Shown here piece after piece: positions 11,777-35,412 of a stretch of DNA of 53,451 nt. The position numbers were made by a program, and so were the translations under genes. The DNA is from an uncultured Eubacteriales bacterium. Its GTDB lineage: Bacteria; Bacillota; Clostridia; Oscillospirales; Oscillospiraceae. The stretch covers positions 1 to 53,451 of the forward strand of contig CASFJB010000003.1 of the NCBI GenBank assembly GCA_949294945.1. The letters run 5' to 3'. The notes under the pieces are model-generated. The model was not told where the DNA came from, did no database searches, and saw nothing but the letters and a program-made list of their open reading frames with translations. The first letter of the stretch is position 1, and each line of letters starts with the position of its first letter.

Positions 11777-11798
11777 ACACGCAAGGGGGACGTCAGAT

Positions 11799-12392: not shown

Positions 12393-12403
12393 GCTTTTAC
12401 ATG

Positions 12404-12441
12404 AAAAATACACATCTCCCCGCCGGGAGATGTGTATTTTA
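12404..12441. terminator. bidirectional intrinsic terminator between convergent genes
   Basis: Perfect 15-bp stem AAATACACATCTCCC / GGGAGATGTGTATTT with loop CGCC. An A-run lies on the left and a T-run on the right. Confidence 0.8.
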
Positions 12442-12445
12442 ATAT

Positions 12446-13384
12446 CTATTTTGAGATCTTAGCCTTCATGTCCAGCAGGCCCATGGCCAGCCGGTCAAGA
12501 CCCATGTAATTCAGGCGCATCACCAGCCGCCTGTTCCGGCTCTCTCTCCGGTAGCAGGCACAGCTGCCCAGGTCTGGGATCTTCTCCCGCACATAGGCCC
12601 GGAGCCGGGAAAGCACCTCTCCCCGGTCCGGCGTATCCTGGCGGGACACCCGGCTGACGGCATCCAAAAGCACATGGTTAATCAGGAAAAACTCAAACTC
12701 CTCCCGGTGTTCCGGCAGCATCTGCTCCGAGAGCATGTCCATTATCTTCAGCATGTCCAGGTTTTTTGCGGAGTTGTTGTTGCGCATGGTGGAGTCCTGG
12801 TGCCTGCGGTAGATATACAGCGGCTCCCTGACATACTCTACCTTCTTTGCCCTGATGAGCATCATGGCGGAGAAATAGAAATCCTCATACCAGAGCCCCA
12901 CGGGAAAGCGCAGTTCCCCCACCAGTTCCCGGCGGAATATCTTGTTGCAGGCCGAGCCTGCGGAGGCCAGGGGGTGCTCCTGAACGCAGGCGGGGAGAGC
13001 TTCTTCCCTGCCGTCATCGTAGCGGGCCAGCCAGTCGCAGACCGCCACATCGGCCCCGGTCTCCTCCGCCCTGGCAATGAGCTTTTCGTACATGTCCGGG
13101 GCTATGGTATCGTCGCTGTCTATAAAGCCCAGGAATTCCCCCCGGGCCTCCGGGATGGCGAAGTTCCTGGCCCGGCCCTGGCCGCCGTTATCCACCCGGC
13201 GCAGTCTTATCAGCTCCGGGTATCTGTCTCTGTACTCCTCCAGCACGGCGGCGGTGCCGTCGGTGGAACCGTCGTCCACCAGGAGTATCTCAAAATCCCC
13301 GATGCTCTGTCCCACCAGGGAGTCCAGGCACTGGCGGATATAGGGCAGCACATTGTATACCGGTACGATAATACTAAGCTTCAT
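12446..13384 (-). CDS. family 2 glycosyltransferase
   Basis: MKLSIIVPVYNV, DDGSTDGT and DSDD. The ATG at 13384 has GGAG 9 nt upstream. The track start at 13399 is a GTG. Confidence 0.88.
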   Translation of the reverse strand: MKLSIIVPVYNVLPYIRQCLDSLVGQSIGDFEILLVDDGSTDGTAAVLEEYRDRYPELIRLRRVDNGGQGRARNFAIPEARGEFLGFIDSDDTIAPDMYEKLIARAEETGADVAVCDWLARYDDGREEALPACVQEHPLASAGSACNKIFRRELVGELRFPVGLWYEDFYFSAMMLIRAKKVEYVREPLYIYRRHQDSTMRNNNSAKNLDMLKIMDMLSEQMLPEHREEFEFFLINHVLLDAVSRVSRQDTPDRGEVLSRLRAYVREKIPDLGSCACYRRESRNRRLVMRLNYMGLDRLAMGLLDMKAKISK

Positions 13385-18650: not shown

Positions 18651-19280
18651 TTACCTCCTCTGCTCCATGAGAGCGGCCATGACTTTGCCGTATATCTCCC
18701 CATGGAGCTCTTCGCAGCTCTTCTGTATCTCCAGACAGGCGGCATTCAGTCTCTCGGCCTCCGCTCTGTCCTTCAGACTTTTGGTGTTGATGTATACGTT
18801 AAGTGCCGCAGAATCTACGGCGGCCTTTAGCATGGCGGCGGCGCAGCCGGCGTCGGACACCGCCATCACCGAGCCCTTTTCCGCCATAAGCTTTGTCAGT
18901 TCCATGGCCCGGAGCGCAAGTTCCATTATCTTCTTCGGCGCGGTACAGGCGGTCAGAGTCGCCCATTCCAGCTTCTCCTCCCGGCCCGGCTCATCCTTGG
19001 GCAGTCTGTAGGTTTGACTGAGGGGTATGAAGCCCTCAGCATCCTCCATCACCGTATCCAGCAGCATTTCCCGGAGCTCTTCCAGTTCCGCCGCCGCTGC
19101 CCTTATCTCTTCCTCCACCCCGGCATAGCGCTTTTTGCCCACTGTCAGAGCGGCCACCATTTCCCCAAGGGCCGTCCCCAGGGCTCCGGCAAGAGCCGCC
19201 GCTCCGCCGCCGCCGGGAGTCGGGCTTTCGGAGGCCAGGAGGGCAGTAAAGTCCCGGCAGCTTTCCTTTGTGTAGTCCAT
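18651..19280 (-). CDS. cyclodeaminase/cyclohydrolase family protein (FTCD_C / FchA-like)
   Basis: 209 aa, all-helical, with N-terminal LASESPTPGGGGAAALAGALGTALGEMV, which is typical of the FTCD C-terminal domain family. Confidence 0.8.
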   Translation of the reverse strand: MDYTKESCRDFTALLASESPTPGGGGAAALAGALGTALGEMVAALTVGKKRYAGVEEEIRAAAAELEELREMLLDTVMEDAEGFIPLSQTYRLPKDEPGREEKLEWATLTACTAPKKIMELALRAMELTKLMAEKGSVMAVSDAGCAAAMLKAAVDSAALNVYINTKSLKDRAEAERLNAACLEIQKSCEELHGEIYGKVMAALMEQRR

Positions 19281-19292
19281 TCCCGCTCCCTC

Positions 19293-20504
19293 TCAGATTA
19301 TCAGTCCGTATCTGCTGCAGAGGGGCAGCAGCTCCTCTTCCCGAAGGCTTCCTTCGTACATTGCCCGGCCCTGATACAGTCTCAGGGCCTGCTCAAGGAG
19401 CTTGGCATCATCGCAGCAAAGGCAGAGGGGCTTTGAGATCATGAACTGGCAGTCGGCAAAGGCGGAGAGCTCCTCCTTTGACTTGATGGCTATGGCCACC
19501 ATTTCCCCTTCCGTTTCCTCCATAAGCTCCTCTTCCAGCTCCTCGTTGCAGCTGAGTATCCTGCCGTGTTCCGCAGAGGGCTCCAGAAAAAAGACCTCCT
19601 TCTCCGTGGCGCAGGGCAGCTTGTCAGCGTGCAAAGGCGCCGGGGACAGCATCTCCAGCGAGGCGCTGCCCTTGGCAATAGCCTCCACGTGGCCTGCCTC
19701 CGTGCCGCAGCAGCCGCCGAAGATGCAGACCCCCGCCCGGGCCATTCCGGGAATGCAGGCGGAGAACTCCTCCGGCGGGCAGTTGTACACCGTCTCTCCC
19801 TCCACCGTCTCCGGCATGCCGGCGTTGGGCTTTGCCAGCAGCGGTATGCAGGCTATTTCCCTCAGGCGCTCCAGCTGGACCAGCATCTCCTCCGGCCCCA
19901 CGGAACAGTTGAGTCCGAAGGCGTCGGCTCCCATGCCCTGCATTATCTGCAATGCCGCCCTCACATCGCTGCCGGTGAGGGTGCGGCCCTTCTCGTCGCA
20001 GGTGAAGGAGACAAACACCGGCTTTTCGCTGACGCTCTTCACCGCCAGCAGGGCGGCCCTGGCCTCCGCCACCGTCATCATGGTCTCTATGACATAGAGG
20101 TCCACCCCGGCGTTTTCCAAGGCGGCCGCCTGTTCGGTGTATATCTCCACCAGCTCGTCAAAGGATGCCGTGCCCAGGGGATAGAGCATCAGGCCCGTGG
20201 GGGCCAGGTCCCCGGCCACCCAGGCTCTGTCCCCCGCCGCCTTGCGGCTGAGGTTCACCAGGGCCTGGTTATATTCTTCCACCTTGCCGAAAATGCCGTG
20301 CTGCTCCAGCTTCACCCGGTTGGCCCCGAAGGTGGGGGCGTAGATGACCCGGCTGCCCGAGTCCACATAGCTGCGCTGTATCTCCAGTATGGCCTGGGGA
20401 TGGTTCAGCGTCCAGCTCTCGGCGCATTCCTCTCCGGTATAACCCCGCTTCTGCAGCTGGGTCCCGGTAGCCCCGTCCAATATAAGTGGAAAGCTCAGTT
20501 CCAT
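19293..20504 (-). CDS. homocysteine S-methyltransferase-family protein (MetH Hcy-domain-like) with an extra C-terminal ~100 aa
   Basis: ILDGATGTQLQ start and zinc-site GGCCGT. The tail KPLCLCCDDAKLLEQALRLYQGRAMYEG resembles part of a pterin-binding barrel. Confidence 0.8.
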   Translation of the reverse strand: MELSFPLILDGATGTQLQKRGYTGEECAESWTLNHPQAILEIQRSYVDSGSRVIYAPTFGANRVKLEQHGIFGKVEEYNQALVNLSRKAAGDRAWVAGDLAPTGLMLYPLGTASFDELVEIYTEQAAALENAGVDLYVIETMMTVAEARAALLAVKSVSEKPVFVSFTCDEKGRTLTGSDVRAALQIMQGMGADAFGLNCSVGPEEMLVQLERLREIACIPLLAKPNAGMPETVEGETVYNCPPEEFSACIPGMARAGVCIFGGCCGTEAGHVEAIAKGSASLEMLSPAPLHADKLPCATEKEVFFLEPSAEHGRILSCNEELEEELMEETEGEMVAIAIKSKEELSAFADCQFMISKPLCLCCDDAKLLEQALRLYQGRAMYEGSLREEELLPLCSRYGLII

Positions 20505-22045
20505 TCCAGTTCGTCCTCCTTGCTGAATGTCATATGTTCAGGGAAAGCCCGGTTGAAACGGGCATCCCCGGAAAGCTCTATATATCTGCACTTTTCCTGT
20601 ATCCTGTACAGCTCCTCCCGGCTGTCCATATCCAGCAGAGCCATGGCCGCCCCGCCAAGAGCGCTGTTTCCCAGAGCCTCTGCCCTGTCCGCCAGCTCCT
20701 CCGGCAGCATGCCTATGTCCGCCGCAGCCTTCACATCCAGGTGGGAGCCAAAGCCCCCGGCTATATACACCCGGCCAATATCTCCGGAACCTATGCCCAG
20801 CTCCTCCATGAGCACTTCTATCCCGGCGGCCACGGCGGCCTTGGCCAGCTGCAGCTGTCTCACGTCCCCGGCAGTTAGATATACTCTGTCGCTTAGGTAC
20901 AGGCAGCCGTTTCCCCTGTCATCTTCCCTCAGCCAGGGGCTGAGCTCTTCCGGGGCCTCTTCCGGAGGCAGCAGCCAGCCGCCCTCATCTACGGCTCCCA
21001 GCTCCAGCAGCAGGGCCAGCAGGCTGATGAGGCCGGAGCCGCACAGGCCCTTTGCCTCCCCGCCGCCAATGACATCCGTTTCAAAGCCCTTTCCCGTCCA
21101 TCTCACCGCCGTTACGGCCCCGGTCATGCTGGCCATCCCGCAGCTGATCCCGGCCCCCTCAAAGGCCGGGCCTGAGGCTACGGAGCAGGTGACAAAGCCG
21201 GCCCTGCCCCCCAGAGCCATCTCTCCGTTGGTGCCAATGTCCAGGAAAAGGTTCAGCCCTTCTCTGTCCCACAGGCCGGAAGAGAGCAGTCCCGCCATGA
21301 TATCCCCGCCCACATAGGCGGCTGCACAGGGAGCGGCCAAAGCTTTAACGTGTTTTATGTAAACCGGATCTCTCTTGGTGAACAGGCTTACAGGTCTGAA
21401 TGGGGCCACGGCAATACCAGCCGGGGAAAGGCCCATAAAAATGTGCTCCATCACCGTGTTGCCCACCGCGATGAGCTCTTCCAGGCTGTCGTCCTGTCTC
21501 CCTGAGCTGAGCATAAGCTCCCGGACAAGTTCAAAGACCTGGCTCCGTACCCGCTGTTTCAGCAGCTCCAGCCCGTCCTCATGTTCCATGATATACTGGC
21601 AGCGGCTGATGACGTCGGCCCCAAAGGGGCTCTGGCTGTTCCAGGCGCCCAGGCTGCCCAGCTCCAGGCCCTGCTCCAGATCAAAGAGCTTCACCGCCAG
21701 GGTGGTAGTGCCTATATCCACGGCAGCCCCCAGACCGCGGCGCCCGGTCCCGCGCCCGGATTCATGTGTTATGTCAACCTCTCTGCCCTCCCGGCAGATC
21801 TCTCCTGTTCCCCGCTCCGGAAGAAGCACTTCCATGTCCCCATCTATGTTATATCGGCAGGCCAGGACGCTTTCCCTGCCTCTGCCCCGGTCCACAATTA
21901 CCCGGCATTTGCCGCATTTCCCGTTTCCGCCGCAGGGCGCAGGCAGCTCCAGGCCGCCCCGGCGCAGGATTTCCAGAAGATTCTCCCCGTTTTTTGCTTT
22001 AAATTCAAAGTCTCTGTCCCCTTGACGGGCCAAAATCCTTGACAT
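20495..22045 (-). CDS. RACo-like reductive activator of corrinoid proteins (2Fe-2S ferredoxin + ASKHA ATPase, DUF4445 type)
   Basis: N-terminal plant-type ferredoxin CGGNGKCGKCRV. A long ASKHA-like body follows, with DIGTTT and DIGTNGE phosphate motifs. Confidence 0.85.
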   Translation of the reverse strand: MSRILARQGDRDFEFKAKNGENLLEILRRGGLELPAPCGGNGKCGKCRVIVDRGRGRESVLACRYNIDGDMEVLLPERGTGEICREGREVDITHESGRGTGRRGLGAAVDIGTTTLAVKLFDLEQGLELGSLGAWNSQSPFGADVISRCQYIMEHEDGLELLKQRVRSQVFELVRELMLSSGRQDDSLEELIAVGNTVMEHIFMGLSPAGIAVAPFRPVSLFTKRDPVYIKHVKALAAPCAAAYVGGDIMAGLLSSGLWDREGLNLFLDIGTNGEMALGGRAGFVTCSVASGPAFEGAGISCGMASMTGAVTAVRWTGKGFETDVIGGGEAKGLCGSGLISLLALLLELGAVDEGGWLLPPEEAPEELSPWLREDDRGNGCLYLSDRVYLTAGDVRQLQLAKAAVAAGIEVLMEELGIGSGDIGRVYIAGGFGSHLDVKAAADIGMLPEELADRAEALGNSALGGAAMALLDMDSREELYRIQEKCRYIELSGDARFNRAFPEHMTFSKEDELEWN

Positions 22046-22067
22046 ATATTTATCCTTTTCCTATAAT
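22039..22067 (+). promoter_or_regulatory. consensus sigma-A promoter TTGACA-17-TATAAT for the DUF2284/methyltransferase operon
   Basis: TTGACA lies at 22039-22044 and TATAAT at 22062-22067, giving an exact 17-nt spacer. Confidence 0.6.
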
Positions 22068-22070
22068 TAT

Positions 22071-22084
22071 TTAAAGTACTTTAA
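22071..22084. promoter_or_regulatory. 14-bp perfect palindrome TTAAAGTACTTTAA, candidate shared operator
   Basis: It lies immediately downstream of the plus-strand -10. It also lies next to a minus-strand TTGACA-16-TATATC promoter (22116-22111 / 22094-22089). Confidence 0.4.
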
Positions 22085-22140
22085 GTATGATATACAGTAG
22101 CCGGGGCTTTTGTCAAGGAGCATTGTGAAAGGAGCGAGGG

Positions 22141-22677
22141 ATGCCGGATTTTTTTCAGCTGGCCAGGCAAAACGGCTTTGAGCATATCGCTCCCCTTTGC
22201 ATGGAAGCACTGAAGCCTTTGCCTGAGGTGCGGGAAATGTGCGCCTCGGGGCGCTGTCTTAAATACGACCGCTGCTGGAGCTGTCCTCCCGCCTGCGGCA
22301 GCCTGGATGACACGGCCCGGCGCATGGGCCGTTACCGCCGGGGCATCCTGGTCCAGACCGTGGGAGAGCTGGAGGACGAGTTTGACAGCAGGGGCATAGC
22401 TCTGGCCCAGGCCAGGCACAAGTCGGCTTTTTCCAATCTGGCCAGGCAGGCCAGATGCCTGGAGCCGGACTGTCTGCCCCTCACCGCCGGGGCCTGCACC
22501 CTCTGCCATAAGTGCACCTGGCCGGACAGGCCCTGCCGCTTTCCCCAAAAGCGCCTGTCCTCCATGGAGGCCTACGGGCTGCTGGTGAGCGAAGTGTGCC
22601 TGCGCTCCGGGCTGGATTACAACTACGGTCCCGGCACCATTAGTTTCACTTCATGTATTCTGTTTGAAAAGGAGTAA
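22141..22677 (+). CDS. DUF2284-type metal-binding (Cys-rich) protein
   Basis: 178 aa with CASGRCLKYDRCWSCPPACG and CTLCHKCTWPDRPC cysteine clusters. This family recurs next to corrinoid methyltransferase genes. Confidence 0.7.
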   Translation: MPDFFQLARQNGFEHIAPLCMEALKPLPEVREMCASGRCLKYDRCWSCPPACGSLDDTARRMGRYRRGILVQTVGELEDEFDSRGIALAQARHKSAFSNLARQARCLEPDCLPLTAGACTLCHKCTWPDRPCRFPQKRLSSMEAYGLLVSEVCLRSGLDYNYGPGTISFTSCILFEKE

Positions 22678-22684
22678 AAGCGAG

Positions 22685-24400
22685 ATGCAGAGCCCTAAGG
22701 AAATTTTTCTGGAATTACTCAAGCCTGACGGCAGGCCGGAGCGGCAGCTGAAGCAATATGAGGCGCTGCATGTGGTGCTGAACGATCCTGTGAACGGCTA
22801 TCTCCGGGCCGGCCGGGGAAAGGGGCACACCAGTATCGACCGCTGGGGCACCACAATAATGTGGCCGGAGGATGCTCCCGGGCCCATGCCCCACATCACG
22901 CCGGAGACCAAGGTCTGCCCGGATATCACCCGCTGGCGGGAATATGTCCATGCCCCGGATCTGGAGTCCAACTGCACCCAGGGCTGGGAGGACTGTGCCG
23001 CCGCTGCCAGGGCAGCTGCTGGAGATGGCAAGATAATTGCCGGTTTCATGGGCACCGGCATTTTTGAGCAGTGCCATTTTCTCATGGGTTTCGAGGACAC
23101 TCTCACCAATCTTTACGAGCATCCGGAGGAAATGCATCAGCTTATTGATTATATTACGGACTACAGGCTACAATTCGTCAAATTACTTATTGACGGACTG
23201 GCCCCGGATATGATATTCTCCCATGACGACTGGGGCGCAAAGGATTCGCTGTTTATGAAGCCGGAAATGTGGCGGGAATTTTTCAAGGAACCCTACCGGC
23301 GTTTTTACGGCTACATCCGCTCCCGGGGCGTCATAGCCCTGCACCATGCCGACTCCTACCTGGCTCCCATTGTGGAGGACATGGCGGAGATAGGCATACA
23401 GATCTGGCAGGGTGTACTGCCGGATAACGATATCCCCGCTCTTCAGCGCCGGCTGAAGGGGCGCATGGTGCTCATGGGCGGCATAGGCGCCGCCATCGAC
23501 CGTCAGGACGCCTCCGAAGAGGAGATACGCAGCTATGTGGGCGCTGCTCTCAAAGCCTGCTGCCCCGGCGGCCATTTTATCCCCAGCATCACCTACGGTC
23601 TTGCCGGGACCGTATTCCCCCATGTAGACCCCATCATCGATGATGAGATAGACAAATACAACTCGGTGCTCCATATGCCTGCCCTTGACCTTCCCCCGGC
23701 GCCCCGGCGCGTCACGGCTCCTAAGGCCCATGTACAGGCCAAAGCCCAGGAGGATAAGCTTGACGGACTGCTCTCCCAGCTGTCCCAAGCCCTTTGCCGT
23801 GGGCAGAGGAAAAAGGTCCTGGAGCTCTGCCGTCAGGGTCTGGATCAGGGCTTTGAGGCCAGAGAGCTGCTGGAGCAAGGGCTTGTGGCCGGTATGACCA
23901 GGCTTGGCGACGACTTTACCGCAGGCCGGGCCTTTGTGCCGGAGATGCTTATGGCAGCCCGCTGCATGGCGGCGGCCACTGAGCTTTTAAAGCCTGGTCT
24001 TGTAAGCGGCGAAGAGAAAGCCGCAGGCCGGGTCGTTCTGGGCACGGTGAAGGGGGACATGCACGATATAGGCAAGAACCTGGTGAAGATAATGATGGAA
24101 GGCTGCGGCCTGGAGGTCATTGATCTGGGCCTGGACGTGAGTCCCGAGGCCTTTGTTGACACCGCTATCGAAAAAAACTGCGGTATTATAGCCTGCTCTT
24201 CCCTGCTTACCACCACCATGGCGGAAATGCGCCGGGTCGTAAACCTGGCGGTGGAAAAAGGTATCAGGGATAAAATAAAAATCATGGTTGGGGGCGCTCC
24301 CATCACTGAGAGCTTCTGCCAGGAGATCGGCGCTGACGCCTATACCGCCGACGCAGGTCAGGCGGCCAGGGTGGCCGTAAGTCTCCTGCAGGGCGCCTGA
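22685..24400 (+). CDS. URO-D-family (MtaA/CmuA/O-demethylase MT-I-like) methyltransferase fused to a cobalamin-binding domain
   Basis: The N-terminal ~340 aa are URO-D-like. The C-terminal ~215 aa carry a B12-binding cap plus a Rossmann domain with DMHDIGKN (DxHxxG), SSLLTTT and MVGGAP. The ATG at 22685 is preceded by AAAAGGAG. Confidence 0.85.
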   Translation: MQSPKEIFLELLKPDGRPERQLKQYEALHVVLNDPVNGYLRAGRGKGHTSIDRWGTTIMWPEDAPGPMPHITPETKVCPDITRWREYVHAPDLESNCTQGWEDCAAAARAAAGDGKIIAGFMGTGIFEQCHFLMGFEDTLTNLYEHPEEMHQLIDYITDYRLQFVKLLIDGLAPDMIFSHDDWGAKDSLFMKPEMWREFFKEPYRRFYGYIRSRGVIALHHADSYLAPIVEDMAEIGIQIWQGVLPDNDIPALQRRLKGRMVLMGGIGAAIDRQDASEEEIRSYVGAALKACCPGGHFIPSITYGLAGTVFPHVDPIIDDEIDKYNSVLHMPALDLPPAPRRVTAPKAHVQAKAQEDKLDGLLSQLSQALCRGQRKKVLELCRQGLDQGFEARELLEQGLVAGMTRLGDDFTAGRAFVPEMLMAARCMAAATELLKPGLVSGEEKAAGRVVLGTVKGDMHDIGKNLVKIMMEGCGLEVIDLGLDVSPEAFVDTAIEKNCGIIACSSLLTTTMAEMRRVVNLAVEKGIRDKIKIMVGGAPITESFCQEIGADAYTADAGQAARVAVSLLQGA

Positions 24401-24527
24401 ACCCCCGCACCGGCTGAGGCCTGCCATGTCACATCCAATGGAGGCCGTCCGCCGGGATATCTTCTCCGGCTTGCCGGGGAAACCGATGGGTAAAAATGCT
24501 TATCGATATTTGAAAGGAAGGTTTGTT

Positions 24528-26612
24528 ATGGCACGGAAAAAAGTTGATTCAGATGTGAAGAAAACCGCCGTGAAAGAGGCGGCAGCACCGGCTGCGGAAA
24601 AAGAAACCAAGGCCCCTGTCAAGGCTGCACCCGCTGAAAAGGCCGCTCCTGTAGAAAAAAAGACCGAGCCTGTTGTGGAGAAGAAAGCCGCTCCCGCTGA
24701 GAAGAAGGCCGAGCCCGTGGTGGAGAAAAAAGCCGCTCCCGCTGAGAAGAAGGCCGAGCCTGCAAAGAAGAAAGCTGCTCCCGCGAAAAAGAAGGCTGAG
24801 CCTGCCGAAAAGAAGGCTGAGCCTGCCGAGAAGAAGGCCGCTCCCGCAAAGAAGAAAGCCGCTCCCGCGAAAAAGAAGGCTGAGCCTGCCGAAAAGAAGG
24901 CTGAGCCTGCCGAGAAGAAGGCCGCTCCCGCAAAGAAGAAAGCCGCTCCTGCAAAGAAAAAGGCTGAACCCGCAGCAGAAGCCGCTCCCGTTGTAGAAGC
25001 TGCTCCCGTCGTTGAGGCCGCTCCCGTCGTTGAGGCCGCTCCCGTCGTTGAGACCACCCCCGTGGTGGAGGCCGCCCCCGTGGTGGAGGCCGCTCCTGTT
25101 GTTGAAGAAACCCCCGTTGTTGAGGAGGCTGCACCTGTGTTGGATATCTCTACTCTGCCCCGCAGAAGCGTGGCTTTCATCGGTTCCGAGTGTCATCCCT
25201 TTGTCAAGACCGGCGGGCTGGGGGATGTTATGTATGCCCTGCCCCGGGAGCTGGTCAAGCTCAACTGCGACGTGCGCGTGATCCTGCCCCGCTACGCCTG
25301 CATACCCAGGAAGTATCAGGACAAGATGGTTTACCGCGGCGAGTTCTACATGGACCTGGGCGGCACCGGTCGCGACTACTATGTAGGCATAATGGAATAC
25401 GTCTGTGACGGCGTTGTCTACGATTTCATCGACAACCAGGAGTTCTTCACCTCCGGCAATCCCTACACCAATCTTGTGGACGATATTCCCAAGTACTGCT
25501 TCTTCAGCAAGGCCGCCCTGGCTGCTCTCAACTACATGAACTGGATACCCGACATCATCCACTGCCACGACTGGCAGGCCGGTCTTGTCCCCGTGTATCT
25601 GCGTACCCTGTTCAAGGATACCCCTGTGGGCCGTGCCCGGTCTATACTTACCATACATAATCTCCGCTTCCAGGGCATCTTCAATATCCCCACCATAAAG
25701 TACTGGTCCGGTCTGCCCGACTCCGTATTCAACATGGGCGCTCTCCAGCAGGACTACGTCAACGCCAATATGCTCAAGGGCGGCCTGGCCTATGCCGACC
25801 GCATCACCACCGTCAGCGGCACCTACGCCTGGGAGATACAGACCGCCGAATACGGCGAGCGTCTGGAGGATCACCTGCGCTACCACAGCGGCAAGCTGAG
25901 AGGCATAGTCAACGGCATAGACTACGAAATGTGGAACCCTGAGACCGACCCGGCCCTGGCAGAGAATTACGGTCTGGCCAATGTGCTCAACCACAAGATG
26001 GAGAACAAGAAGGCCCTCCAGAGAGAGCTGGGCCTGGTGGAGGACGAAGGCAAGTTCGTCATTGGCCTCATCTCCCGTCTCACCAACCAGAAGGGTCTGG
26101 ATCTGGTGAGCACCATCGTGCCCCAGGTGCTGGACGGCAACACCCAGATCGTTGTCCTGGGTACCGGCGACGCCCAGTATGAGGACAGCTTCCGCTATTA
26201 TGAGGCCACCAACAAGGGCACCTTCAGCGCCTGCATCCAGTATGACGAGGCAAGAGCCCACCGCATTTATGCCGGCGCCGACGCTCTGCTGGTCCCCTCC
26301 CGCTTCGAGCCCTGCGGACTTACCCAGCTCAACGCCATGCACTACGGCACCCTGCCCATCGTCCGGGAGACCGGCGGCTTGAAGGACACCGTGCAGCCCT
26401 ACAATGATTTTACCGGCGAGGGCAACGGCTTTACCTTCGACCGCTACGACGCCGGATTGCTGCTGGATGCCATCAACCGGGCCAAGACCGTTTACTTCAC
26501 CAACCGCTATCACTGGGACGAGATAGTCCAGCGGGATATGGCCAAGGACGTGTCCTGGACCAACTCCGCAAGGCAGTACAAGGACCTGTATCTGGAACTG
26601 ACTCAGTGGTGA
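24528..26612 (+). CDS. glgA: glycogen (starch) synthase with a ~210-aa low-complexity N-terminal extension
   Basis: The GT5 core starts at RSVAFIGSECHPFVKTGGLGDV. The start MARKKVD at 24528 is preceded by AGGAAGG. Confidence 0.92.
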   Translation: MARKKVDSDVKKTAVKEAAAPAAEKETKAPVKAAPAEKAAPVEKKTEPVVEKKAAPAEKKAEPVVEKKAAPAEKKAEPAKKKAAPAKKKAEPAEKKAEPAEKKAAPAKKKAAPAKKKAEPAEKKAEPAEKKAAPAKKKAAPAKKKAEPAAEAAPVVEAAPVVEAAPVVEAAPVVETTPVVEAAPVVEAAPVVEETPVVEEAAPVLDISTLPRRSVAFIGSECHPFVKTGGLGDVMYALPRELVKLNCDVRVILPRYACIPRKYQDKMVYRGEFYMDLGGTGRDYYVGIMEYVCDGVVYDFIDNQEFFTSGNPYTNLVDDIPKYCFFSKAALAALNYMNWIPDIIHCHDWQAGLVPVYLRTLFKDTPVGRARSILTIHNLRFQGIFNIPTIKYWSGLPDSVFNMGALQQDYVNANMLKGGLAYADRITTVSGTYAWEIQTAEYGERLEDHLRYHSGKLRGIVNGIDYEMWNPETDPALAENYGLANVLNHKMENKKALQRELGLVEDEGKFVIGLISRLTNQKGLDLVSTIVPQVLDGNTQIVVLGTGDAQYEDSFRYYEATNKGTFSACIQYDEARAHRIYAGADALLVPSRFEPCGLTQLNAMHYGTLPIVRETGGLKDTVQPYNDFTGEGNGFTFDRYDAGLLLDAINRAKTVYFTNRYHWDEIVQRDMAKDVSWTNSARQYKDLYLELTQW
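24782..24949 (+). repeat. perfect 84-bp tandem duplication (2 copies) inside the glgA 5' extension
   Basis: 24782-24865 and 24866-24949 are identical base for base. Each encodes a 28-aa AKKKAEPAEKKAEPAEKKAAPAKKKAAP-type unit. Confidence 0.95.
24981..25124 (+). repeat. eight tandem 18-nt units encoding (A/T/E)(A/T)PVVE
   Basis: GCCGCTCCCGTCGTTGAG-like units translate to AAPVVE x8, with TTPVVE and ETPVVE variants. Confidence 0.9.
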
Positions 26613-27382: not shown

Positions 27383-27393
27383 GGCCGCATATG

Positions 27394-27433
27394 AAAATCC
27401 CGCCGCACCTATTTTCGGTGCGGCGGGATTTTT
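27394..27433. terminator. bidirectional intrinsic terminator
   Basis: 16-bp stem AAAATCCCGCCGCACC / GGTGCGGCGGGATTTT with loop TATTTTC, between convergent genes. Confidence 0.85.
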
Positions 27434-27451
27434 ATTCAAAGCGAATGGATA

Positions 27452-28624
27452 TCAGGTTCTGGCCACTCCGCTGTCCTTGGCTGCTTTATATACGGCGGCG
27501 GCCACGGCCTCCCGTACTCTGGGGTCGAAGGCCAGGGGGAGGATGTAATCGGCGGAGAGCTCTTCGTCGCTGACCAGAGAGGCTATGGCCTGGGCGGCAG
27601 CCAGCTTCATCTCTTCGTTTATGTCCCATGCCCTGGCATCCAGAGCGCCCCGGAAGATTCCGGGGAAGGCCAGGACATTGTTCACCTGGTTGGGATAGTC
27701 GCTGCGGCCGGTAGATACCACGGCGGCCCCGGCGGCCTTGGCCTGATCCGGCAGTATCTCCGGCACGGGATTGGCGCAGGCAAAGATTATTGAATCTTTA
27801 TTCATACTTCTCACCATGTCCTGGGTGAGAAGGCCGGGGGCGGAAACACCTATAAACACGTCGGCTCCCTTTATCACCTCCGCCAGGCTCCCCTGCTCCC
27901 GGCCGGGATTGGTCATTGCGGCGATCTCCGCCTTGGCCGGATTAAGTCCCGGGCGGCCGGAATATATGGCGCCGCTCCTGTCGCACATGACAATGTTTTT
28001 GACTCCCGCTCCAGCCAGCAGCTTCACCACGGCAGTACCTGCGGCTCCGGCTCCGGAGGTGACCACCTTGATCTCCTCCAGCTTCCTGCCCGTCAGGCGC
28101 AGGGCGTTTTTCAAAGCTGCCATGACTATGACCGCGGTACCGTGCTGATCATCGTGGAAAACGGGGATATCACAGCGCTGCTTCAGCTTCTCCTCTATCT
28201 CAAAGCAGCGGGGGGCGGAGATATCCTCCAGGTTCACTCCGCCGAAGGAGCCGGCAAGCAAAGCCACGGTATTTACTATATCGTCCACGTCCTTGCTGCG
28301 GATGCAGAGAGGTATGGCGTCCACTCCGCCGAACTCCTTAAAGAGGACGCACTTGCCCTCCATTACCGGCATGCCCGCCTCCGGGCCAATATCCCCAAGG
28401 CCCAGCACGGCGCTGCCGTCGGTTACAACAGCCACGGTATTCCAGCGGCGGGTGAGCTCATAGCTCTTGTCCGGGTCCTTCTGTATCTCCAGGCAGGGCT
28501 GGGCGACGCCGGGAGTATAGGCCAGGCTCAGGGCCTCACGGCTGTCCACCTTTGCCCGGGACACCACTTCTATCTTTCCTCTCAGCTGCCGGTGCAGCTC
28601 CAGAGACTTCTGGGCATAATCCAT
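27452..28624 (-). CDS. NAD(P)-dependent malic enzyme (short form)
   Basis: 390 aa with VVTDGSAVLGLGDIG and a dinucleotide-binding GAGAAG motif. Confidence 0.9.
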   Translation of the reverse strand: MDYAQKSLELHRQLRGKIEVVSRAKVDSREALSLAYTPGVAQPCLEIQKDPDKSYELTRRWNTVAVVTDGSAVLGLGDIGPEAGMPVMEGKCVLFKEFGGVDAIPLCIRSKDVDDIVNTVALLAGSFGGVNLEDISAPRCFEIEEKLKQRCDIPVFHDDQHGTAVIVMAALKNALRLTGRKLEEIKVVTSGAGAAGTAVVKLLAGAGVKNIVMCDRSGAIYSGRPGLNPAKAEIAAMTNPGREQGSLAEVIKGADVFIGVSAPGLLTQDMVRSMNKDSIIFACANPVPEILPDQAKAAGAAVVSTGRSDYPNQVNNVLAFPGIFRGALDARAWDINEEMKLAAAQAIASLVSDEELSADYILPLAFDPRVREAVAAAVYKAAKDSGVART

Positions 28625-28625
28625 A

Positions 28626-29201
28626 TCATTTACCGCCTTTCAAACTTTCAAGATAGGCCTCAGGGCCGCTCTCATATATATTTCCCCCAAGACTGTCTAT
28701 AGCCACGGTGAGAGGCATGTCTTTTATCTCCAGCCGCCGCACCGCCTCACAGCCCAGGTCCTCCCAGCATATCACTTCCGCGGACCTGATGCACTGGCTC
28801 ATCAGCGCCCCCGCTCCGCCCATGGCGGCCAGGTACACCGCGCCGTTTCGCACCATGGACTCTATTACTTCCTTATTGCGCATGCCCTTGCCTATCATAA
28901 GCTTCTGTCCCAGGTCAAGGAGCCTGGGTGAATAGGCGTCCATACGCCCGGAGGTGGTGGGACCGGCAGAGCCGATGGCCCGTCCGGGCGGTTCCGGCGT
29001 TGGCCCCACGTAGTAGACGGCGCTGTCTTTCAGTTCAAAAGGCAGCGGCTCCCCCCGGTCCAGACACTCCACCATCCGCTTGTGGGCAGCGTCCCTGGCG
29101 GTATATATCTCCCCGCTGAGATACACCATGTCCCCGGCCCGGAGCTTAGCCAGCTCCTCCCGGCTCAGGGGTGTTTTAAGGCTATATTCCATAGTGCTCA
29201 T
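28626..29201 (-). CDS. Fe-S hydro-lyase beta subunit (class I fumarate hydratase / tartrate dehydratase beta)
   Basis: 191 aa with a GPTTSGRMD motif. The start ATG overlaps the stop of the upstream GT-C gene (ATGA at 29198-29201). Confidence 0.88.
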   Translation of the reverse strand: MSTMEYSLKTPLSREELAKLRAGDMVYLSGEIYTARDAAHKRMVECLDRGEPLPFELKDSAVYYVGPTPEPPGRAIGSAGPTTSGRMDAYSPRLLDLGQKLMIGKGMRNKEVIESMVRNGAVYLAAMGGAGALMSQCIRSAEVICWEDLGCEAVRRLEIKDMPLTVAIDSLGGNIYESGPEAYLESLKGGK

Positions 29202-30880
29202 TCCTTTCTCTCCAGAACAAAAAATCCCCCATACTGTCTGGCATCAAACAGATCCATATCAAAGCAATCCAGCTCGTCCTCAGCTGCCACATATACCGCA
29301 TCCTCTTCCGGGTCTATCTCAATATCCTCCATAGGCGCAAAAGTATAGCGTTCATCAAAAGGCAGCAGCCCCTCCGGGCAGGTCTTGCCCTGGTAGTACT
29401 CCGCATCCGTCTCGTGATAGAAAAGAGTCAGAATCTCGCTGATGTTTCCCCGTGTATCGTCATGCAGGGAGGCGGTTATATACATCTTTTCCGCATCGTC
29501 GTCCTTTATGGACAGCATGGCATCTCCAAAGTCTTTATAGAAATAGTACTCAAGAGTCTTGGAATATTCCCCAAAATAGCTAAAGCACATCATCACAAAG
29601 GCAAGCATATAAACGGCAGCCAGGCCTGCTCTCAGCGGCACGGAGGCAAAGCTCCTCGCTGTCAGGTATATGCCCACGGCGGCAAAGATGATCTGGGGGT
29701 AAAAAATGATGTTTATCCGGTTTACATTCACCCCTATGGTACATACCCCGCACCACAGCCCGGTGATATAAAACAGGATCAGCAGCGCCGCAGCACTGTT
29801 TTTTCTGAATTGCAGCAAAGTCCAGCCCAGACCCAGCAGCACAAAGGGAATGGAAAATAAGTATATGGTTCCATAGGCGGGCATGCTGTTCCAGGGCTTG
29901 TCCGGCGCCTGGATGAACACCACCAGCAGCAGGCATTTGATATCGTACAGCAGCTGTATAATAAAGCTGTACTTCGGGTCATGGAAGAACAGAATGTCGC
30001 TGGAGCGGCGGCTGTCCGGGAAAAACGGCAGAGTGAAGGGCCCCAGCTCTATGGTCTCAAGCCCAAAGAAGTTTATGACCATTACCGTAATGAAGGGCCA
30101 GGACACCGCCAGCCACACCACCAATGCCAAAAATGCCTCCGGAATGCTGACCTCTTTCTTCACCAGCAAATATATACAGGCCATTACCAGAAACAAGGGC
30201 ATGGTATATATCGCTATTCCGTAGCAGTACATGCACAGGCCGAACATCACCATGCTGACGCTCAGAGTCAGCTTGCGGTGCCTGGCTTTCATGGAGCGGT
30301 TCAAAAAGTATATTCCAAACAGGAAGAAATGGGGATACAAATTGCAGTCCAAAGCCCAGCGGCTCTGCATAAAATGCCAGGGCGCAATACAGCCGAAAGC
30401 AAAAATGAACAATGCCGCTTTCTTGCCGAAGGCATCTCTGGAAAAAAGATACAAAACCGCCAAGCCCAGCAGGCTGACTATCAGTATGGGCAGGCGCGCC
30501 GATACCGGGCTGAAGCCCATGAGCTTTATAAAGGGCACCATCAGGTAGCTGAGCAAAGCGCTCATCTGGCCGTAGCCCCAGGCTGTGAGATGCACCGGCA
30601 GGCTCATGCCGTAGCGATCGGTGCCATGGTCCGCCAGCGCCTTGCCGTCTACCGCAGCCATGGCCCCGTCCTGATAGAAGCCTCCCGGCACCTGGCCGAA
30701 TTTATATACCCGGACAAATACGGCCACAAGGGCAAAAAACACAAATATTGTCCAATACAGCCTGTCGGACATCTCCAGCTCCAAGAGACTTCCGGAATTC
30801 TTGTACAGTCTCTTTGCCGTCATAAGGCAGAGCATGAGCACGGCAAAGGCCAGAACTATACTTATCGCTATCATAAGCAA
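29198..30880 (-). CDS. GT-C fold membrane glycosyltransferase, ArnT/PMT(GT39/GT83)-like; paralog 1 (intact)
   Basis: 560 aa and polytopic. The first loop reads GGFYQDGAMAA, followed by ARLPILIVSLLGLAVLYLFSRDAFGKKAALFIFAFGCIAPWH, which is typical of ArnT/PMT_2 proteins. A soluble C-terminal domain of ~140 aa follows. Confidence 0.7.
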   Translation of the reverse strand: MLMIAISIVLAFAVLMLCLMTAKRLYKNSGSLLELEMSDRLYWTIFVFFALVAVFVRVYKFGQVPGGFYQDGAMAAVDGKALADHGTDRYGMSLPVHLTAWGYGQMSALLSYLMVPFIKLMGFSPVSARLPILIVSLLGLAVLYLFSRDAFGKKAALFIFAFGCIAPWHFMQSRWALDCNLYPHFFLFGIYFLNRSMKARHRKLTLSVSMVMFGLCMYCYGIAIYTMPLFLVMACIYLLVKKEVSIPEAFLALVVWLAVSWPFITVMVINFFGLETIELGPFTLPFFPDSRRSSDILFFHDPKYSFIIQLLYDIKCLLLVVFIQAPDKPWNSMPAYGTIYLFSIPFVLLGLGWTLLQFRKNSAAALLILFYITGLWCGVCTIGVNVNRINIIFYPQIIFAAVGIYLTARSFASVPLRAGLAAVYMLAFVMMCFSYFGEYSKTLEYYFYKDFGDAMLSIKDDDAEKMYITASLHDDTRGNISEILTLFYHETDAEYYQGKTCPEGLLPFDERYTFAPMEDIEIDPEEDAVYVAAEDELDCFDMDLFDARQYGGFFVLERKE

Positions 30881-30937
30881 ACCTCGTTTCTCTTTTCTCT
30901 CTGCATAAGTCCGGTGGTCGCCGGACAGCCGTCTGCT

Positions 30938-32592
30938 TCAGTCCCTGGTCTCCAGCAGATAGTAAGTGCCAAACTGCTCCACATCGTAGAGCTCCAGCTC
31001 AAAACAGCCCAGCTCGTTTTCCGCCGCCACATAGGCGGCATCCTCCTGCGGGTCTATATCTATATCCTCCATATTGGCATAGGTATAGCGCTCCCCATAG
31101 GGCAGCAGCCCCTCCGGGCAGGTCTTGCCCTGATAGTACTCCGAATCTATCTGGTGATAGAACAGCGTCAGGACTTCGCTGACATAGGCGGTGTTCTCCC
31201 CCTGGCTCTTGCCGGTTATATAGAATCTCTCCGCATCGCTGTATTGCAGGGCCGAGACCGCCGTGCCGAAGTCCTTGAAAAAGCAATATTCCATCTGCCC
31301 GGCATAGTATCCAAAGTAAGTACTGCACAGCAGGGCAAAAGCCAGCAGATAGGCGGCAGCCACACCCAGGCGCAGGGGAAAGGCGTCCATGCGGCAGAAC
31401 ACCGTATATATGCCCAGGGCGGTAAAAAGGATTTGTGGGTAGAAGATGATGTTTATGCGGTTGATGTTCACTCCGTTGGTGCATAGGCCGCACCACAGCC
31501 CGGTGATGAAGAAGAACAGCAGCAGCACTGCCCCGTCGTTATTTTTAAGCCGCAGCAGTACATACACAAAGCCCAGCACCGCAAAGGGCATCGAGAACAG
31601 ATATATGCTGCCGAAGGCAGGGATATTGTTCCAGAGCAGGTCGCTCCCCTGAGCAAACACCGCAGTTTGCAGGGATTTAAGATTCTCCCACAGCTGGGAG
31701 AGTATATCATCGGAAAAGAAAAGTATATCGTTGGAACGGACGCTGCCGGAAAAATAGGGCAGAGTGAAAGGGCCTATCTCCACCGTATCCCAGCCGAAGT
31801 AGTTGATGGCCATGGCAAGGATGAAGGGCCAAGACACCGCCAGCCAGACCGCCATGGCCATCAGCGCCTCCCCTATGCTTACTTTTTTCTTCAGCAGCAG
31901 ATAAACGCAGGCAAGCACCAGAAACAGCGGCACACGCCATAGCAGTACATGCACAGGCCGAACATCACCATGCTCAGGCACAGCAGCAGCTTACGGCGCC
32001 CGGCTTTCAGGGAGCGGTTGAGAAAATATACTCCGAAGAGAAAGAAGTGGGGGTACAGATTGCAGTCCAGGGCCCAGCGGCTCTGAAGAATATGCCAGGG
32101 GGCTATGGCCCCAAAGGCAAAAACTATAAGCGCCGCCTTTTTCCCAAAAGCATCCCGGCTGAAGAAGTACAGGGCGGCCAGGCCCAGCAGGCTGACGATC
32201 AGCTGGGGCAGCCGGGCGGACACCGCATTCAGACCCATAAGCTTTATAAAGGGCACCATCAGGTAGCTGAGCAGAGCGCTCATCTGACCGTAGCCCCAGG
32301 CCGTGAGATGCACCGGCAGGCTCATGCCGTAGTGATCCGTGCCGTGTTCCGCCAGGGCCAAAGCATCTATGGCGGCCATAGCCCCGTCCTGGTTGAAGCC
32401 GCCGGGTACAGAGCCAAATTTATACACCCTAACCAGCACTGCCGCCAGGGCAAAAAACAGCAGCAGGGCTTTATACACCCGGTCATTCAGGGATAGCTCC
32501 AGATCGGAATGGGGCCGGGACAGCAGCCTGGCCATGGCCACAGTGGTCAGAAACAGGGACAAGGCATAAAAGATTAGATTTAATGAATCCAT
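30938..32592 (-). pseudogene. GT-C paralog 2, reading frame broken by a 13-nt deletion
   Basis: ORFs 31891-32592 (N-terminal half) and 30938-31981 (C-terminal half) are collinear with paralog 1. They sit in different frames. The sequence at 31931-31934 lacks the TGGTATATATGGA present in paralog 3. Confidence 0.75.
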
Positions 32593-32613
32593 ATTTTTAT
32601 TTACTGATGGCTC

Positions 32614-34288
32614 TTACTTTCTGTCCAGCACATAATAATATGGTCCGAACTGCTGGATATCGTATAGCTCTGTGTTAAAATACTCCAGTTCATGTACAGC
32701 CACAAGATACACTGCATTTTCGTTTTCGTCTATTTCCATATCGCTCAGATATCCATAAACATACCTCTCCTTATATGGAAGTATGTTTTCGGGCTCCGTT
32801 TTACCTAGGCAGTACTCGGCATCTAACTCATGGTAGAACATTGTAAGGACCTCGCTTGTCTGTATTCCGTGAGCTTCCGCTGTTATATATATTTTATCTG
32901 CATCACTGTCTCTTATCTCTGCAAGTGCCTGGCCGTAATATTTGTAAAAATACCGCTCAATTGACTGAGCTTGGGAATTATACGGGTCAAAATAGCAGCG
33001 TGCAAATAACACAAAAGACAAAAGGTATACCACTGCCGGCATAAGTCTAATCAGCCCTTTGGTATTTCTCATGAAAGCCGCTACTCCCAGGCCAAGAAAA
33101 ACTATTTGCGCATAGAAAATAATATTGATTCTGTTGATATTTACCGCATTGGTAATTATTCCGCACCATAGGCCTGTAAGCCACATAAGGAATATGAGGA
33201 CGGCTCCGGTGTTTACTTTCATCTGCTTGATAAGCCATCCCAATCCCAATAAGACAAATGGCAGAGAAAACTTATATATGCTGCCATACATGGGAATATT
33301 GTTCCACGGTACATCATCCCACTGAAGGAAAACCACCGATACTGTTGTCTTAATGTTTTCAAACAACTGCCTGAGTATATCGTCTGAGAAGAAAAGAATG
33401 TCACCAGCTCTGACACTGTCTTTAAAGTTTTGCAAGGTGAAAGGGCCTATCTCCACCGTATCCCAGCCGAAGTAGTTGATGGCCATGACAAGGATGAAGG
33501 GCCAGGACACCGCCAGCCAGACCGCCATGGCCATCAGCGCCTCCCCTATGCTTACTTTTTTCTTCAGCAGCAGATAAACGCAGGCAAGCACCAGAAACAG
33601 CGGCCAGAAACAGCGGCATGGTATATATGGACACGCCATAGCAGTACATGCACAGGCCGAACATCACCATGCTCAGGCACAGCAGAAGCTTACGGTGCCC
33701 GGCTTTCAGTGAACGGTTAAGGAAATAGATTCCGAAAAGGAAAAAGTGTGGGTAGAAGTTTGCCTCCAATGCCCAACGGCTTTGCATTATATGCCAAGGA
33801 GCTATAGCTGCAAAAAACAATATAATCAGTCCGGTTTTTCTGCCAAAAATATCTCTTGAGACTTTATATAGTACAATTAGCGACAGGCAGCTGACCAGCA
33901 GAGTTGGAATTCTTATAGTGACCGACGTCATGGAAAACATCTTTACTTTTGGGGCTATGAAGTAAGACATAAGTACGCTCATCTGAGCAAATTTCCATGC
34001 TTCGAAAAATACCGGATAAGATGTCCCATAAATGTCCGTACCATAATCAGCCAAGGCCTTGGCATTTATGGCGGCCATTGCTTCATCTTCTTTTATTCCG
34101 CAGGGCACCGCTCCAAATTCGTACAGACGAACGGCGAGCCCCAGAGCAACAATAATAAAAAGCAAGATTTTTTCTGCTTTCCTGGGTATAGACCAATGTC
34201 CTTCCTCAGGATTCTTGACTAACTTATGTGCAGTTAATATACAGAGTACGGCAAAAAATACGAACAATACCGGGTTAACCCTCGACAT
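32614..34288 (-). pseudogene. GT-C paralog 3 (AT-rich), reading frame broken by a 13-bp tandem duplication
   Basis: ORFs 33422-34288 and 32614-33639 are collinear with paralog 1. CCAGAAACAGCGG is directly duplicated at 33591-33616. Removing one copy restores ...YTMPLFLVLACVYLLLKKK. Confidence 0.75.
33591..33616 (-). repeat. 13-bp direct tandem duplication causing the paralog 3 frameshift
   Basis: CCAGAAACAGCGG occurs at 33591-33603 and again at 33604-33616. Confidence 0.95.
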
Positions 34289-34382
34289 TTAGCTTTCCAC
34301 CCTTTAGATCAATTGTTATCCACAACCCAATGAGACTGCTGTAATTTAAAATACATTAATATTAAGTATTTTGAGGTTAGGC

Positions 34383-35225
34383 TTAGTCCAAAATACATCC
34401 GGCTCTTCTGGTCACATGGCAGCTTATATTCACCGCCACCGGCAGGCCGGCCACGTGGGTAGGCATGGTCTCGATATTCACTGCCAGGGCCGTGGTGCGG
34501 CCGCCGAAGCCCTGGGGACCTATGCCCAGGGAATTGATCTCCCGGAGCATATCCGCCTCCAGAGCGGCATAGAATTCATCCTGGTTGGGGCGGTCCACAG
34601 GCCGCAGCAGGGCGTGCTTTGCCAGGGCCGCCGCCTTGTCAAAGGTGCCGCCTATGCCCACGCCCACCACTATGGGGGGGCAGGGGTTGGAACCGGCGGC
34701 CTTCACCGTGTCCAGCACGAAGCGCTTCACTCCTTCCACCCCGTCGGCTGGCTTGAGCATGGCAAGGCGGCTCATGTTCTCGCTGCCGAAGCCCTTGGGA
34801 ACAACGGTGAGCTCCAGCCGGTCCCCCGGCACCAGCTCCACCGTTATGGCGGCAGGGGTATTGTCCCCGGTGTTCACCCGGCGCAGAGGGTCGCCCACAA
34901 CGCTTTTGCGCAGGTAGCCCTGCTCATAGCCCCGGCGCACGCCTTCGTTCACCGCGGCATTGAAGTCCCCCTCTATGTGCACATCCTGGCCCAGGCTCGC
35001 AAAGACGCAGGCCATGCCCGTATCCTGGCAGACAGGCAGATCCATATTCCCGGCGGCCTCTATATTCCGGCACAGCACCCCCAGAGTGGCTTTCGCCACC
35101 GGCCATGGCTCCCCTTCCCGGGCGCTGTCCATGGCCCGGACTATGTCCTCCGGCAGCTGCTTATTGGCCCTTATGCAAAGCTCCGCCACTGCGGCGCTGA
35201 TATCCTCGGCTTTCACTGTACGCAT
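34383..35225 (-). CDS. Fe-S hydro-lyase alpha subunit (class I fumarate hydratase / tartrate dehydratase alpha)
   Basis: 280 aa with the LPVCQDTGMA motif and GVGIGGT. Confidence 0.9.
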   Translation of the reverse strand: MRTVKAEDISAAVAELCIRANKQLPEDIVRAMDSAREGEPWPVAKATLGVLCRNIEAAGNMDLPVCQDTGMACVFASLGQDVHIEGDFNAAVNEGVRRGYEQGYLRKSVVGDPLRRVNTGDNTPAAITVELVPGDRLELTVVPKGFGSENMSRLAMLKPADGVEGVKRFVLDTVKAAGSNPCPPIVVGVGIGGTFDKAAALAKHALLRPVDRPNQDEFYAALEADMLREINSLGIGPQGFGGRTTALAVNIETMPTHVAGLPVAVNISCHVTRRAGCILD

Positions 35226-35412
35226 AGCATTAAAACGGCCCCGCCTCCATGGGGCTCTCCCTTTCCGTTATAGACGGGAATATTATTCCACCCCTTCACC
35301 CGCCTGTCAAGTCCAAGAAAGCTTTGAAAGCCAGGCATATTTAAAAAATTTTACATATTGGTGCTTGCTAAATGCAGCACCCCTGTGTTAAACTCCCCTG
35401 CGAGGTGAATGT

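Follow-up and report, generated by a model that had tools for sequence, protein, structure and literature searches.

GT-C glycosyltransferase genes separating the alpha and beta genes of a class I fumarate hydratase: an apparently ancient and fixed arrangement in uncultured gut Oscillospiraceae

Why should a set of membrane glycosyltransferase genes lie between the genes for the two subunits of a metabolic enzyme? The question is raised by a stretch of 53,451 nucleotides (nt) from an uncultured Eubacteriales bacterium of the Oscillospiraceae (contig CASFJB010000003.1, positions 1 to 53,451, here referred to as the window). On its minus strand, positions 27,391-35,310 form one gene row consisting of fumA, encoding the alpha subunit of a class I fumarate hydratase, three tandem GT-C glycosyltransferase genes, fumB, encoding the beta subunit, and a gene for malic enzyme. 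The gap of 5,181 nt between the alpha and beta genes holds three co-directional, homologous genes of the PMT_2 family. The beta gene starts within an ATGA (29198-29201) that overlaps the stop codon of the beta-proximal GT-C gene, and the malic enzyme gene starts 1 nt past the beta stop codon; both features had been stated in the original prediction and are read directly in the sequence. Taken as a whole, the account that we favor, and regard as probable, is that of an ancient GT-C insertion which is co-transcribed with a housekeeping operon and encodes enzymes decorating glycans of the cell envelope. The GT-C proteins belong to a well-known kind of enzyme and represent neither a new enzyme class nor a new mechanism; their position is unusual, but ancient and fixed.

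The identity of the flanking enzymes is well supported by curated models. The alpha subunit (34383-35225, minus strand as all genes of the row; 280 aa) matches Pfam PF05681 (Fumerase) with an E value of 2e-115 and the NCBIfam equivalog NF004885 'fumarate hydratase' with 409 bits (cutoff 276). The beta subunit (28626-29201; 191 aa), which occurs with identical protein sequence on 7 other contigs, matches PF05683 (Fumerase_C; E 9e-59) and NCBIfam NF005310 (277 bits, cutoff 238), so that both subunits of a two-subunit class I (Fe-S) fumarate hydratase are recognized by equivalog models. Tartrate dehydratase was considered as an alternative identity for the hydro-lyase and rejected: the TtdA and TtdB models fall below their cutoffs while the models for fumarate hydratase and Fe-S hydro-lyases score above theirs, and fumarate hydratase is therefore the better name. 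The protein encoded downstream (27452-28624; 390 aa) matches the Pfam families malic and Malic_M. Together with the 5,181-nt gap, these Pfam and NCBIfam identities bear out the predicted separation of the alpha and beta genes of a class I fumarate hydratase by GT-C genes.

The inserted genes were designated copies 1 to 3, starting from the beta gene. Copy 1 (29198-30874; 'p3' lineage) encodes 558 aa and is the only one of the three with an intact open reading frame (ORF); its start is the ATG at 30874, and a 560-aa version beginning at a TTG is an artefact that stems from listing ORFs mechanically. The middle copy 2 (30938-32592; 'core' lineage) is disrupted and would encode 555 aa if repaired, and the alpha-proximal copy 3 (32614-34288; 'p1' lineage) is likewise disrupted and would encode 553 aa with one repeat unit removed. 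The prediction of three GT-C paralogs of about 555 aa thus holds with regard to co-direction, homology and the PMT_2 domain, while three intact genes are not present in this sequence, as copies 2 and 3 carry frameshifts. PF13231 (PMT_2) scores above its gathering cutoff of 26.1 bits for all three, with 31.4 bits for copy 1, 32.6 bits for the N-terminal half of copy 2 (E 1.1e-7) and 40.3 bits for the N-terminal half of copy 3 (E 4.7e-10), and was detected in 120 of the 120 homologs listed. NCBIfam contains no model for the protein, and a sequence profile search of the PDB with the family returned no match; fold comparison alone was successful. An AlphaFold2 model of copy 1, built with 44 homologs (pLDDT 88.9, pTM 0.91), retrieved ArnT (5F15) as first match in a Foldseek search of the PDB (E 2.6e-8, TM score 0.56-0.58). 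The top 37 matches were all GT-C or GT-C-related polytopic enzymes, among them AglB, STT3, PglB, ALG12, AftA, Pmt4, DPY19, AftB, Emb and the GPI-transamidase complex. As far as a prediction allows, the model confirms the GT-C fold and agrees with the ArnT/PMT-like identity originally proposed, which corresponds to CAZy GT39-GT83-like enzymes. Two aspartates of the first extracytoplasmic loop are conserved among the 44 homologs, D69 without exception and D76 nearly so. An aspartate aligned to D69 is found in all three copies of the window as well as in gene 1 of the same-species locus L001, and D69 may be the equivalent of the catalytic aspartate of ArnT. The C-terminal domains had been thought to be distinct in each paralog. 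They turned out to be homologous versions of one domain of about 125 aa with 45-60% mutual identity, a family-specific alpha/beta domain which in copy 1 (29198-29581; 127 aa) reaches a pLDDT of 91.5 when folded alone.

Whether the subunit genes were split by an insertion can be judged from related genomes, which were collected with copy 1 as query and then searched by tblastn for the fum and malic enzyme proteins, and from outgroups, which were collected by a scan with the beta subunit. Two loci of the same species, L001 and L003, have alpha, three intact GT-C genes (555, 555 and 558 aa), beta and malic enzyme in this order; the flanks of L001 are 98.5-99% identical to the window at the DNA level, and copy 1 is 99% identical to gene 3 of L001 (P0001). 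In addition to the three copies in the window and L001/L003, two GT-C copies lie between alpha and beta in L008 and L012, and a single one in L009, L010, L011, L014, L017, L089/L090 and L091; where contigs end within the row, at least one copy (L022) or at least two copies (L171) are present. The proteins of the split loci are 81-95% (fumA) and 77-90% (fumB) identical to those of the window, and their records bear the names Oscillospiraceae or Candidatus Limivicinus. The interrupted order, fumA, a variable number of GT-C genes, fumB and malic enzyme, thereby occurs in at least 10 related species. By contrast, none of 67 outgroup loci with both fum genes (fumB at most 75% identical) has a GT-C gene between them, and in 49 of these no more than 45 nt separate the two genes. 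The nearest outgroups are ordered fumA-fumB-malic and a further group malic-fumA-fumB, and GT-C homologs with 53% identity or less, mostly from Lachnospiraceae, never adjoin fum genes. Since the outgroup fum loci have no GT-C gene between the subunit genes, adjacency of alpha and beta is the ancestral state, and the GT-C genes go back to one early insertion that was fixed in a single clade. On this comparison, a GT-C gene entered a fumA-fumB-malic operon in the common ancestor of a clade of uncultured gut Oscillospiraceae comprising Candidatus Limivicinus and relatives, and has been fixed since. Of the two possibilities raised in the original prediction, an insertion that split the fum genes is hence the one favored by the outgroups; at the same time, the special significance given to the arrangement is lost, as the synteny of the relatives reveals an interrupted order that is ancient and fixed.

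The junction between alpha and beta has also been invaded at least once more, in an outgroup lineage from the human gut (order malic-fumA-fumB, fumB about 68% identical). In this lineage the spacer is mostly 22 nt, and about a dozen contigs have a variable insert of 0.4-0.6 kb, with spacers of 418-641 nt (L101 7361-8000; L110, L111, L115, L118, L121-L123, L127, L128, L131 and L136). The enlarged spacer consists of a constant 3' part of 257 nt with a small ORF of about 80 aa and a 5' part of 60-180-nt segments that occur in opposite orientation in different contigs, and may represent an invertible or mosaic element.

The number of copies in the clade is accompanied by a distinct history of each. 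A neighbor-joining tree built from all the GT-C genes of the fum loci resolves three groups: a core lineage that no species of the clade lacks, a beta-proximal duplicate lineage found in the species of the window and L008, and a deeply divergent alpha-proximal lineage found in the window, L171, L012 and L001. The array accordingly grew by a beta-proximal duplication in some species and by addition of a divergent alpha-proximal gene in others, the species of the window having all three. Between species, dN/dS ranges from 0.07 to 0.12 for each of the three lineages (0.07 for copy 1 against its ortholog in L008), which shows that all of them have been functional over the long term and under purifying selection. 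Within the species, copy 3 is exceptional. After repair it shares only 55% amino acid identity with its positional counterpart in L001, despite flanks that are 98.5-99% identical, and the replaced segment extends from the last fumA codons to a point about 58 nt short of the GT-C stop codon. In L171, the gene occupying this position is intact and 86% identical to copy 3. The G+C content of the window drops to 0.445 in 33001-34000 compared to 0.55-0.60 around it. The alpha-proximal gene is thus exchanged between strains as a whole allele by recombination. Such allele replacement is typical of genes for surface structures. The idea that diversified copies differ in specificity gains support, as an idea, from the one to three copies per species and from the replacement of alleles between strains.

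A further peculiarity of the window are the two frameshifts. Copy 2 is split into the ORFs 31891-32592 and 30938-31981 by a deletion of 13 nt, in which CCATATATACCAT is missing at the junction 31931/31932 and the mutant junction reads GGCGTGT/GCCGCTG; the deleted CCATATATACCAT is retained in the intact 555-aa gene of L001, which is 99% identical to copy 2. In copy 3, a tandem duplication of 13 nt (33592-33617, minus strand), with GCCGCTGTTTCTG occurring twice on the coding strand, breaks the gene into the ORFs 33422-34288 and 32614-33639. The duplicated unit of copy 3 corresponds to the 13 nt directly following the 13 nt deleted in copy 2. The intact sequence at the breakpoint, which is the unmutated form for either copy, is GGCGTGTCCATATATACCATGCCGCTGTTTCTGGTG (also written GTGTCCATATATACCATGCCGCTGTTTCTGGTG), and both 13-nt lesions touch the same breakpoint, CCAT/GCCG. 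They are located within a tract of about 250 nt (33437-33709 in copy 3, 31764-32010 in copy 2) in which the two copies are 97-99% identical, compared to 30-68% DNA identity outside, probably as a result of gene conversion. L171 possesses the tract as well (93-97% similar), and its contig ends inside the tract of its second GT-C gene, which fits with the tract being a repeat that disrupts assemblies.

We consider two explanations of the frameshifts, a private double knock-out and an assembly or polishing error, to be about equally likely. If real, the mutations would have knocked out two of the three transferases recently and in this strain specifically, leaving a single active enzyme, and they could even be reversible, as a 13-nt duplication can collapse, which would allow surface glycans to be switched on and off under pressure from phage or host. 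The size of the lesions agrees with this, since indels of 13 nt are atypical of sequencing errors, and no further indel in coding sequence was found over the approximately 7.4 kb that can be aligned to L001. The locus is otherwise diversifying by allele replacement and changes in copy number, and GT-C genes for glycan decoration are known targets of phage-driven loss (PMC8035078). The alternative, which we judge to have the same chance of being correct, is that both changes arose during assembly or polishing at the two-copy repeat of about 250 nt and that the organism has three intact GT-C genes. Two indels of exactly 13 nt that share a breakpoint and both fall within the sole near-identical tract are unlikely to coincide independently, whereas an error at a repeat easily yields such a pattern, and the broken contig of L171 is consistent with trouble in short-read assembly at the very same tract. 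The contigs of the same species (L001-L004) carry intact genes, all three lineages show the signs of long-term purifying selection, and the mutant forms are seen in the window alone: among 171 loci fetched, none has either the deletion junction of copy 2 or the duplication junction of copy 3, while 5 have the intact junction. Speaking against an artefact, de Bruijn graph assembly needs junction k-mers in the reads, so that novel junctions are not expected, and no specific pipeline was identified that yields exactly these two changes.

The same data bear on a possible role in phase variation. The out-of-frame tail generated by the duplication in copy 3 has no match in a collection of 5.8 billion protein clusters, indicating that the frameshift is not recurrent and weakening the interpretation as phase variation; exact-protein look-ups with the two truncated N-terminal ORFs and fumA of the window also returned no assembly with the same frameshifts on record. 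In a phase-variable contingency locus, a repeat tract or invertible element would flip the reading frame and populations would show both states; here there is neither a simple-sequence repeat nor an invertible element, and the mutant junctions are confined to the window. A neighboring tyrosine recombinase was considered as a switch and ruled out, as it is the housekeeping XerD. Whichever cause applies to the frameshifts, the contigs of the same species show that it normally carries three GT-C genes, all intact. From this sequence two of the three would be annotated as pseudogenes, possibly wrongly.

How, then, would genes in this position be expressed? A promoter-like site on the minus strand (35282-35310; TTGACA, 17-nt spacer, TG-AATAAT) is located 57 nt upstream of the alpha start. 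It is sigma-70-like, agrees with the consensus at 11 of 12 positions and has the top score in the region by consensus match alone, which makes it a candidate promoter for the whole gene row. At the other end, 17 nt past the stop codon of the malic enzyme gene, an inverted repeat on the same strand (27391-27435) with 19-nt arms that are 95% complementary, followed by a run of T, is likely to be an intrinsic terminator closing the operon. Inside the gene row, matches resembling promoters or terminators are not more frequent than in shuffled sequence. In the entire clade, the GT-C genes always abut fumB, either by overlap or with a gap of at most about 12 nt. Because of this tight abutment, and because convincing promoters or terminators of their own were not found, the GT-C genes are most likely co-transcribed with the genes for fumarase and malic enzyme from the site upstream of fumA.

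With regard to function, homology and fold suggest that each enzyme would use a polyprenyl-phosphate-sugar as donor at the outer face of the membrane and transfer the sugar to an acceptor in the cell envelope, which might be teichoic acid, a wall polysaccharide or a surface protein. A donor synthase of glycosyltransferase family 2 (GT2) and a GtrA-type flippase are assumed to have their genes in another part of the genome. Sugar or acceptor would probably vary among the paralogs and alleles, resulting in a surface decoration that varies between strains. A precedent for the assumed partners is given by the homolog P0076 (52% identical), which sits in a GT2-GtrA-GT2-PMT_2-PMT_2 row. Three-component glycosylation systems are laid out in this way in the textbook case.

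Several points weigh against this account. The partner genes that had been expected are missing in the 53-kb window: there is no GtrB-like GT2 with C-terminal membrane helices, the GT2 genes present (9760-10746, 10760-11776 and 12446-13399) being devoid of predicted membrane helices, and tblastn with the GtrA of L088 revealed no GtrA in the window, so that the donor pathway for these GT-C enzymes is an assumption. Unlinked partner genes are common in known multi-component glycosylation systems, and we therefore regard their location outside the window as a gap rather than a contradiction. A census of the genes upstream of 67 distant homologs gave heterogeneous neighbors without a conserved GT2 or GtrA, and most distant homologs do not adjoin such genes. 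The C-terminal domain has no structural counterpart, as a fold search of the PDB with this domain alone gave no significant match (best E 0.48). Co-transcription is deduced from spacing and consensus scans, and a 94-nt AT-rich spacer preceding copy 3 could hold a promoter of its own. Finally, neutral hitchhiking does not by itself explain why the genes were retained throughout the clade at exactly the position between alpha and beta.

The last point leads to the question whether the position has been selected. The GT-C genes might have been kept for co-regulation with the catabolism of fumarate and malate, or due to a physical or metabolic interaction, and it would be in line with such a coupling that every species found in the clade has kept the arrangement, always tightly joined to fumB, and that the GT-C genes are under purifying selection. 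We nevertheless consider this highly improbable. A literature search on the arrangement of GT-C and fumarase genes, or on a metabolic link between them, returned nothing, and hence no pathway leading from fumarase or malic enzyme to polyprenyl-phosphate-sugar glycosylation; nor is any pathway known to link class I fumarate hydratase or malic enzyme with this type of glycosylation. The distant GT-C homologs are never located next to fum genes, and one of them is part of a standard Gtr-like module, while the fumAB operons of the outgroups function without GT-C genes. Copy number and allele identity vary freely, which fits a gene for surface variation and not a fixed metabolic partner. It might further be speculated that selection ties the decoration of surface glycans to the state of the fumarate/malate operon, allele swaps and on/off frameshifts making up a surface-variation cassette under a metabolic promoter; this, too, we regard as very unlikely. 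As nothing points to a functional coupling with C4-dicarboxylate metabolism, the second possibility raised in the original prediction, the simplest reading is that the GT-C genes hitchhike on a constitutively expressed housekeeping operon without any biochemical link to it.

Some additional observations relate to the potential partners of the GT-C enzymes. In 19 loci of Lachnospiraceae (L028 7931-9979, L030 1920-3971, L031 754-2808 and 16 others), the gene directly upstream of the GT-C homolog encodes a conserved, unannotated membrane protein, which is polytopic and about 600-730 aa long and recurred in the census with about 680 aa. It has no Pfam match at E 1e-5 or better and could be a second transferase or a partner protein. 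The window itself harbors a separate cell-surface glycan cluster at 9760-17081, consisting of two tandem genes for soluble GT2 proteins on the plus strand (9760-10746 and 10760-11776) and, on the minus strand, a third GT2 gene (12446-13399) and genes for an O-antigen-ligase-like membrane protein (13384-14886) and a double GT4 protein of 739 aa (14862-17081). This cluster could make the polymer that is decorated by the GT-C enzymes. At the single-copy locus represented by L089 (354-7033) and L090, where the GT-C protein is 58% identical, genes of the polysaccharide or teichuronopeptide type lie co-directionally just upstream of fumA, namely PS_pyruv_trans, two GT2, ATPgrasp_TupA, Octopine_DH and two ATPgrasp_ST, indicating that the fum/GT-C row abuts a wall-polymer cluster there.

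Other features of the window lie outside the gene row. Downstream of the operon, at 18651-24400, lies a corrinoid methyltransferase/C1 cluster that is syntenic in all relatives of the clade and includes FTCD_C, S-methyl_trans, a RACo activator, DUF2284 and a URO-D/B12-binding fusion. A starch/glycogen-synthase-like protein (Glyco_transf_5 and GT1) encoded at 24426-26612 on the plus strand has an N-terminal extension of about 240 aa composed of A/P/E/K-rich and PVVE repeats, to which the strong AT skew at 24-25 kb is due. The length of this protein varies by strain, with 728 aa in the window (mechanical ORF), 685 aa in L001 and 670 aa in L002. In a 267-aa ORF on the minus strand (51333-52136), the N-terminal half of a Ppx/GppA phosphatase is joined to a match to DUF1967 (Obg C-terminal); the ORF is overlapped by another at 51824-52486 and adjoins a polyphosphate kinase gene (52188-53450), and could be another frameshift or a fusion.

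The locus provides a clean and datable example of a foreign gene that landed between the genes for two enzyme subunits and was fixed and amplified there while the enzyme genes were kept, and it illustrates that tight adjacency of alpha and beta is not obligatory for this hydro-lyase. It also draws attention to a set of surface glycosyltransferases that varies between strains of an abundant uncultured group of the gut and rumen and could bear on phage host range or host recognition.

Compared to known systems, the metabolic part of the gene row corresponds to the clostridial class I fumA-fumB operons, which often include a malic enzyme gene. Alpha, beta and malic enzyme are orthologous to the outgroup genes (58-78% identity), and the nearest outgroups have the same fumA-fumB-malic order; the difference lies in the alpha-beta gap, which is 6-45 nt in most outgroups and 1.7-5.2 kb in the clade of the window. 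Among enzymes of solved structure, ArnT (5F15 and 5EZM) is the top match to the copy 1 model over the whole length, has a similar size (about 550 aa) and belongs to the same Pfam clan. With a sequence identity of 13-14% and a root-mean-square deviation of 8-9 Å, the general fold alone is common to both, and ArnT acts on Gram-negative lipid A, an acceptor that is missing in the bacteria studied here. The closest functional counterparts are probably the PMT_2-type proteins GtlB and GttB of Listeria, YkcB of B. subtilis, CsdD and CsdF of L. lactis, GtsC of B. anthracis and GacL of S. pyogenes, the extracellular transferases of Gram-positive multi-component glycosylation systems, and the sugars added by these systems act as phage receptors, among other roles (PMC8035078). 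In contrast to them, the genes of the window sit between metabolic enzyme subunit genes and outside a cell-wall cluster, have no GT2 and flippase genes nearby, and encode the family-specific C-terminal alpha/beta domain of about 125 aa without a structural match. The likeness comprises the shared PMT_2 domain, the polytopic GT-C fold, predicted for the window's proteins, a Bacillota host and several paralogs per genome, and it extends to the strain-level variability expected of surface decoration and to the homolog P0076 with its place in a GT2-GtrA row.

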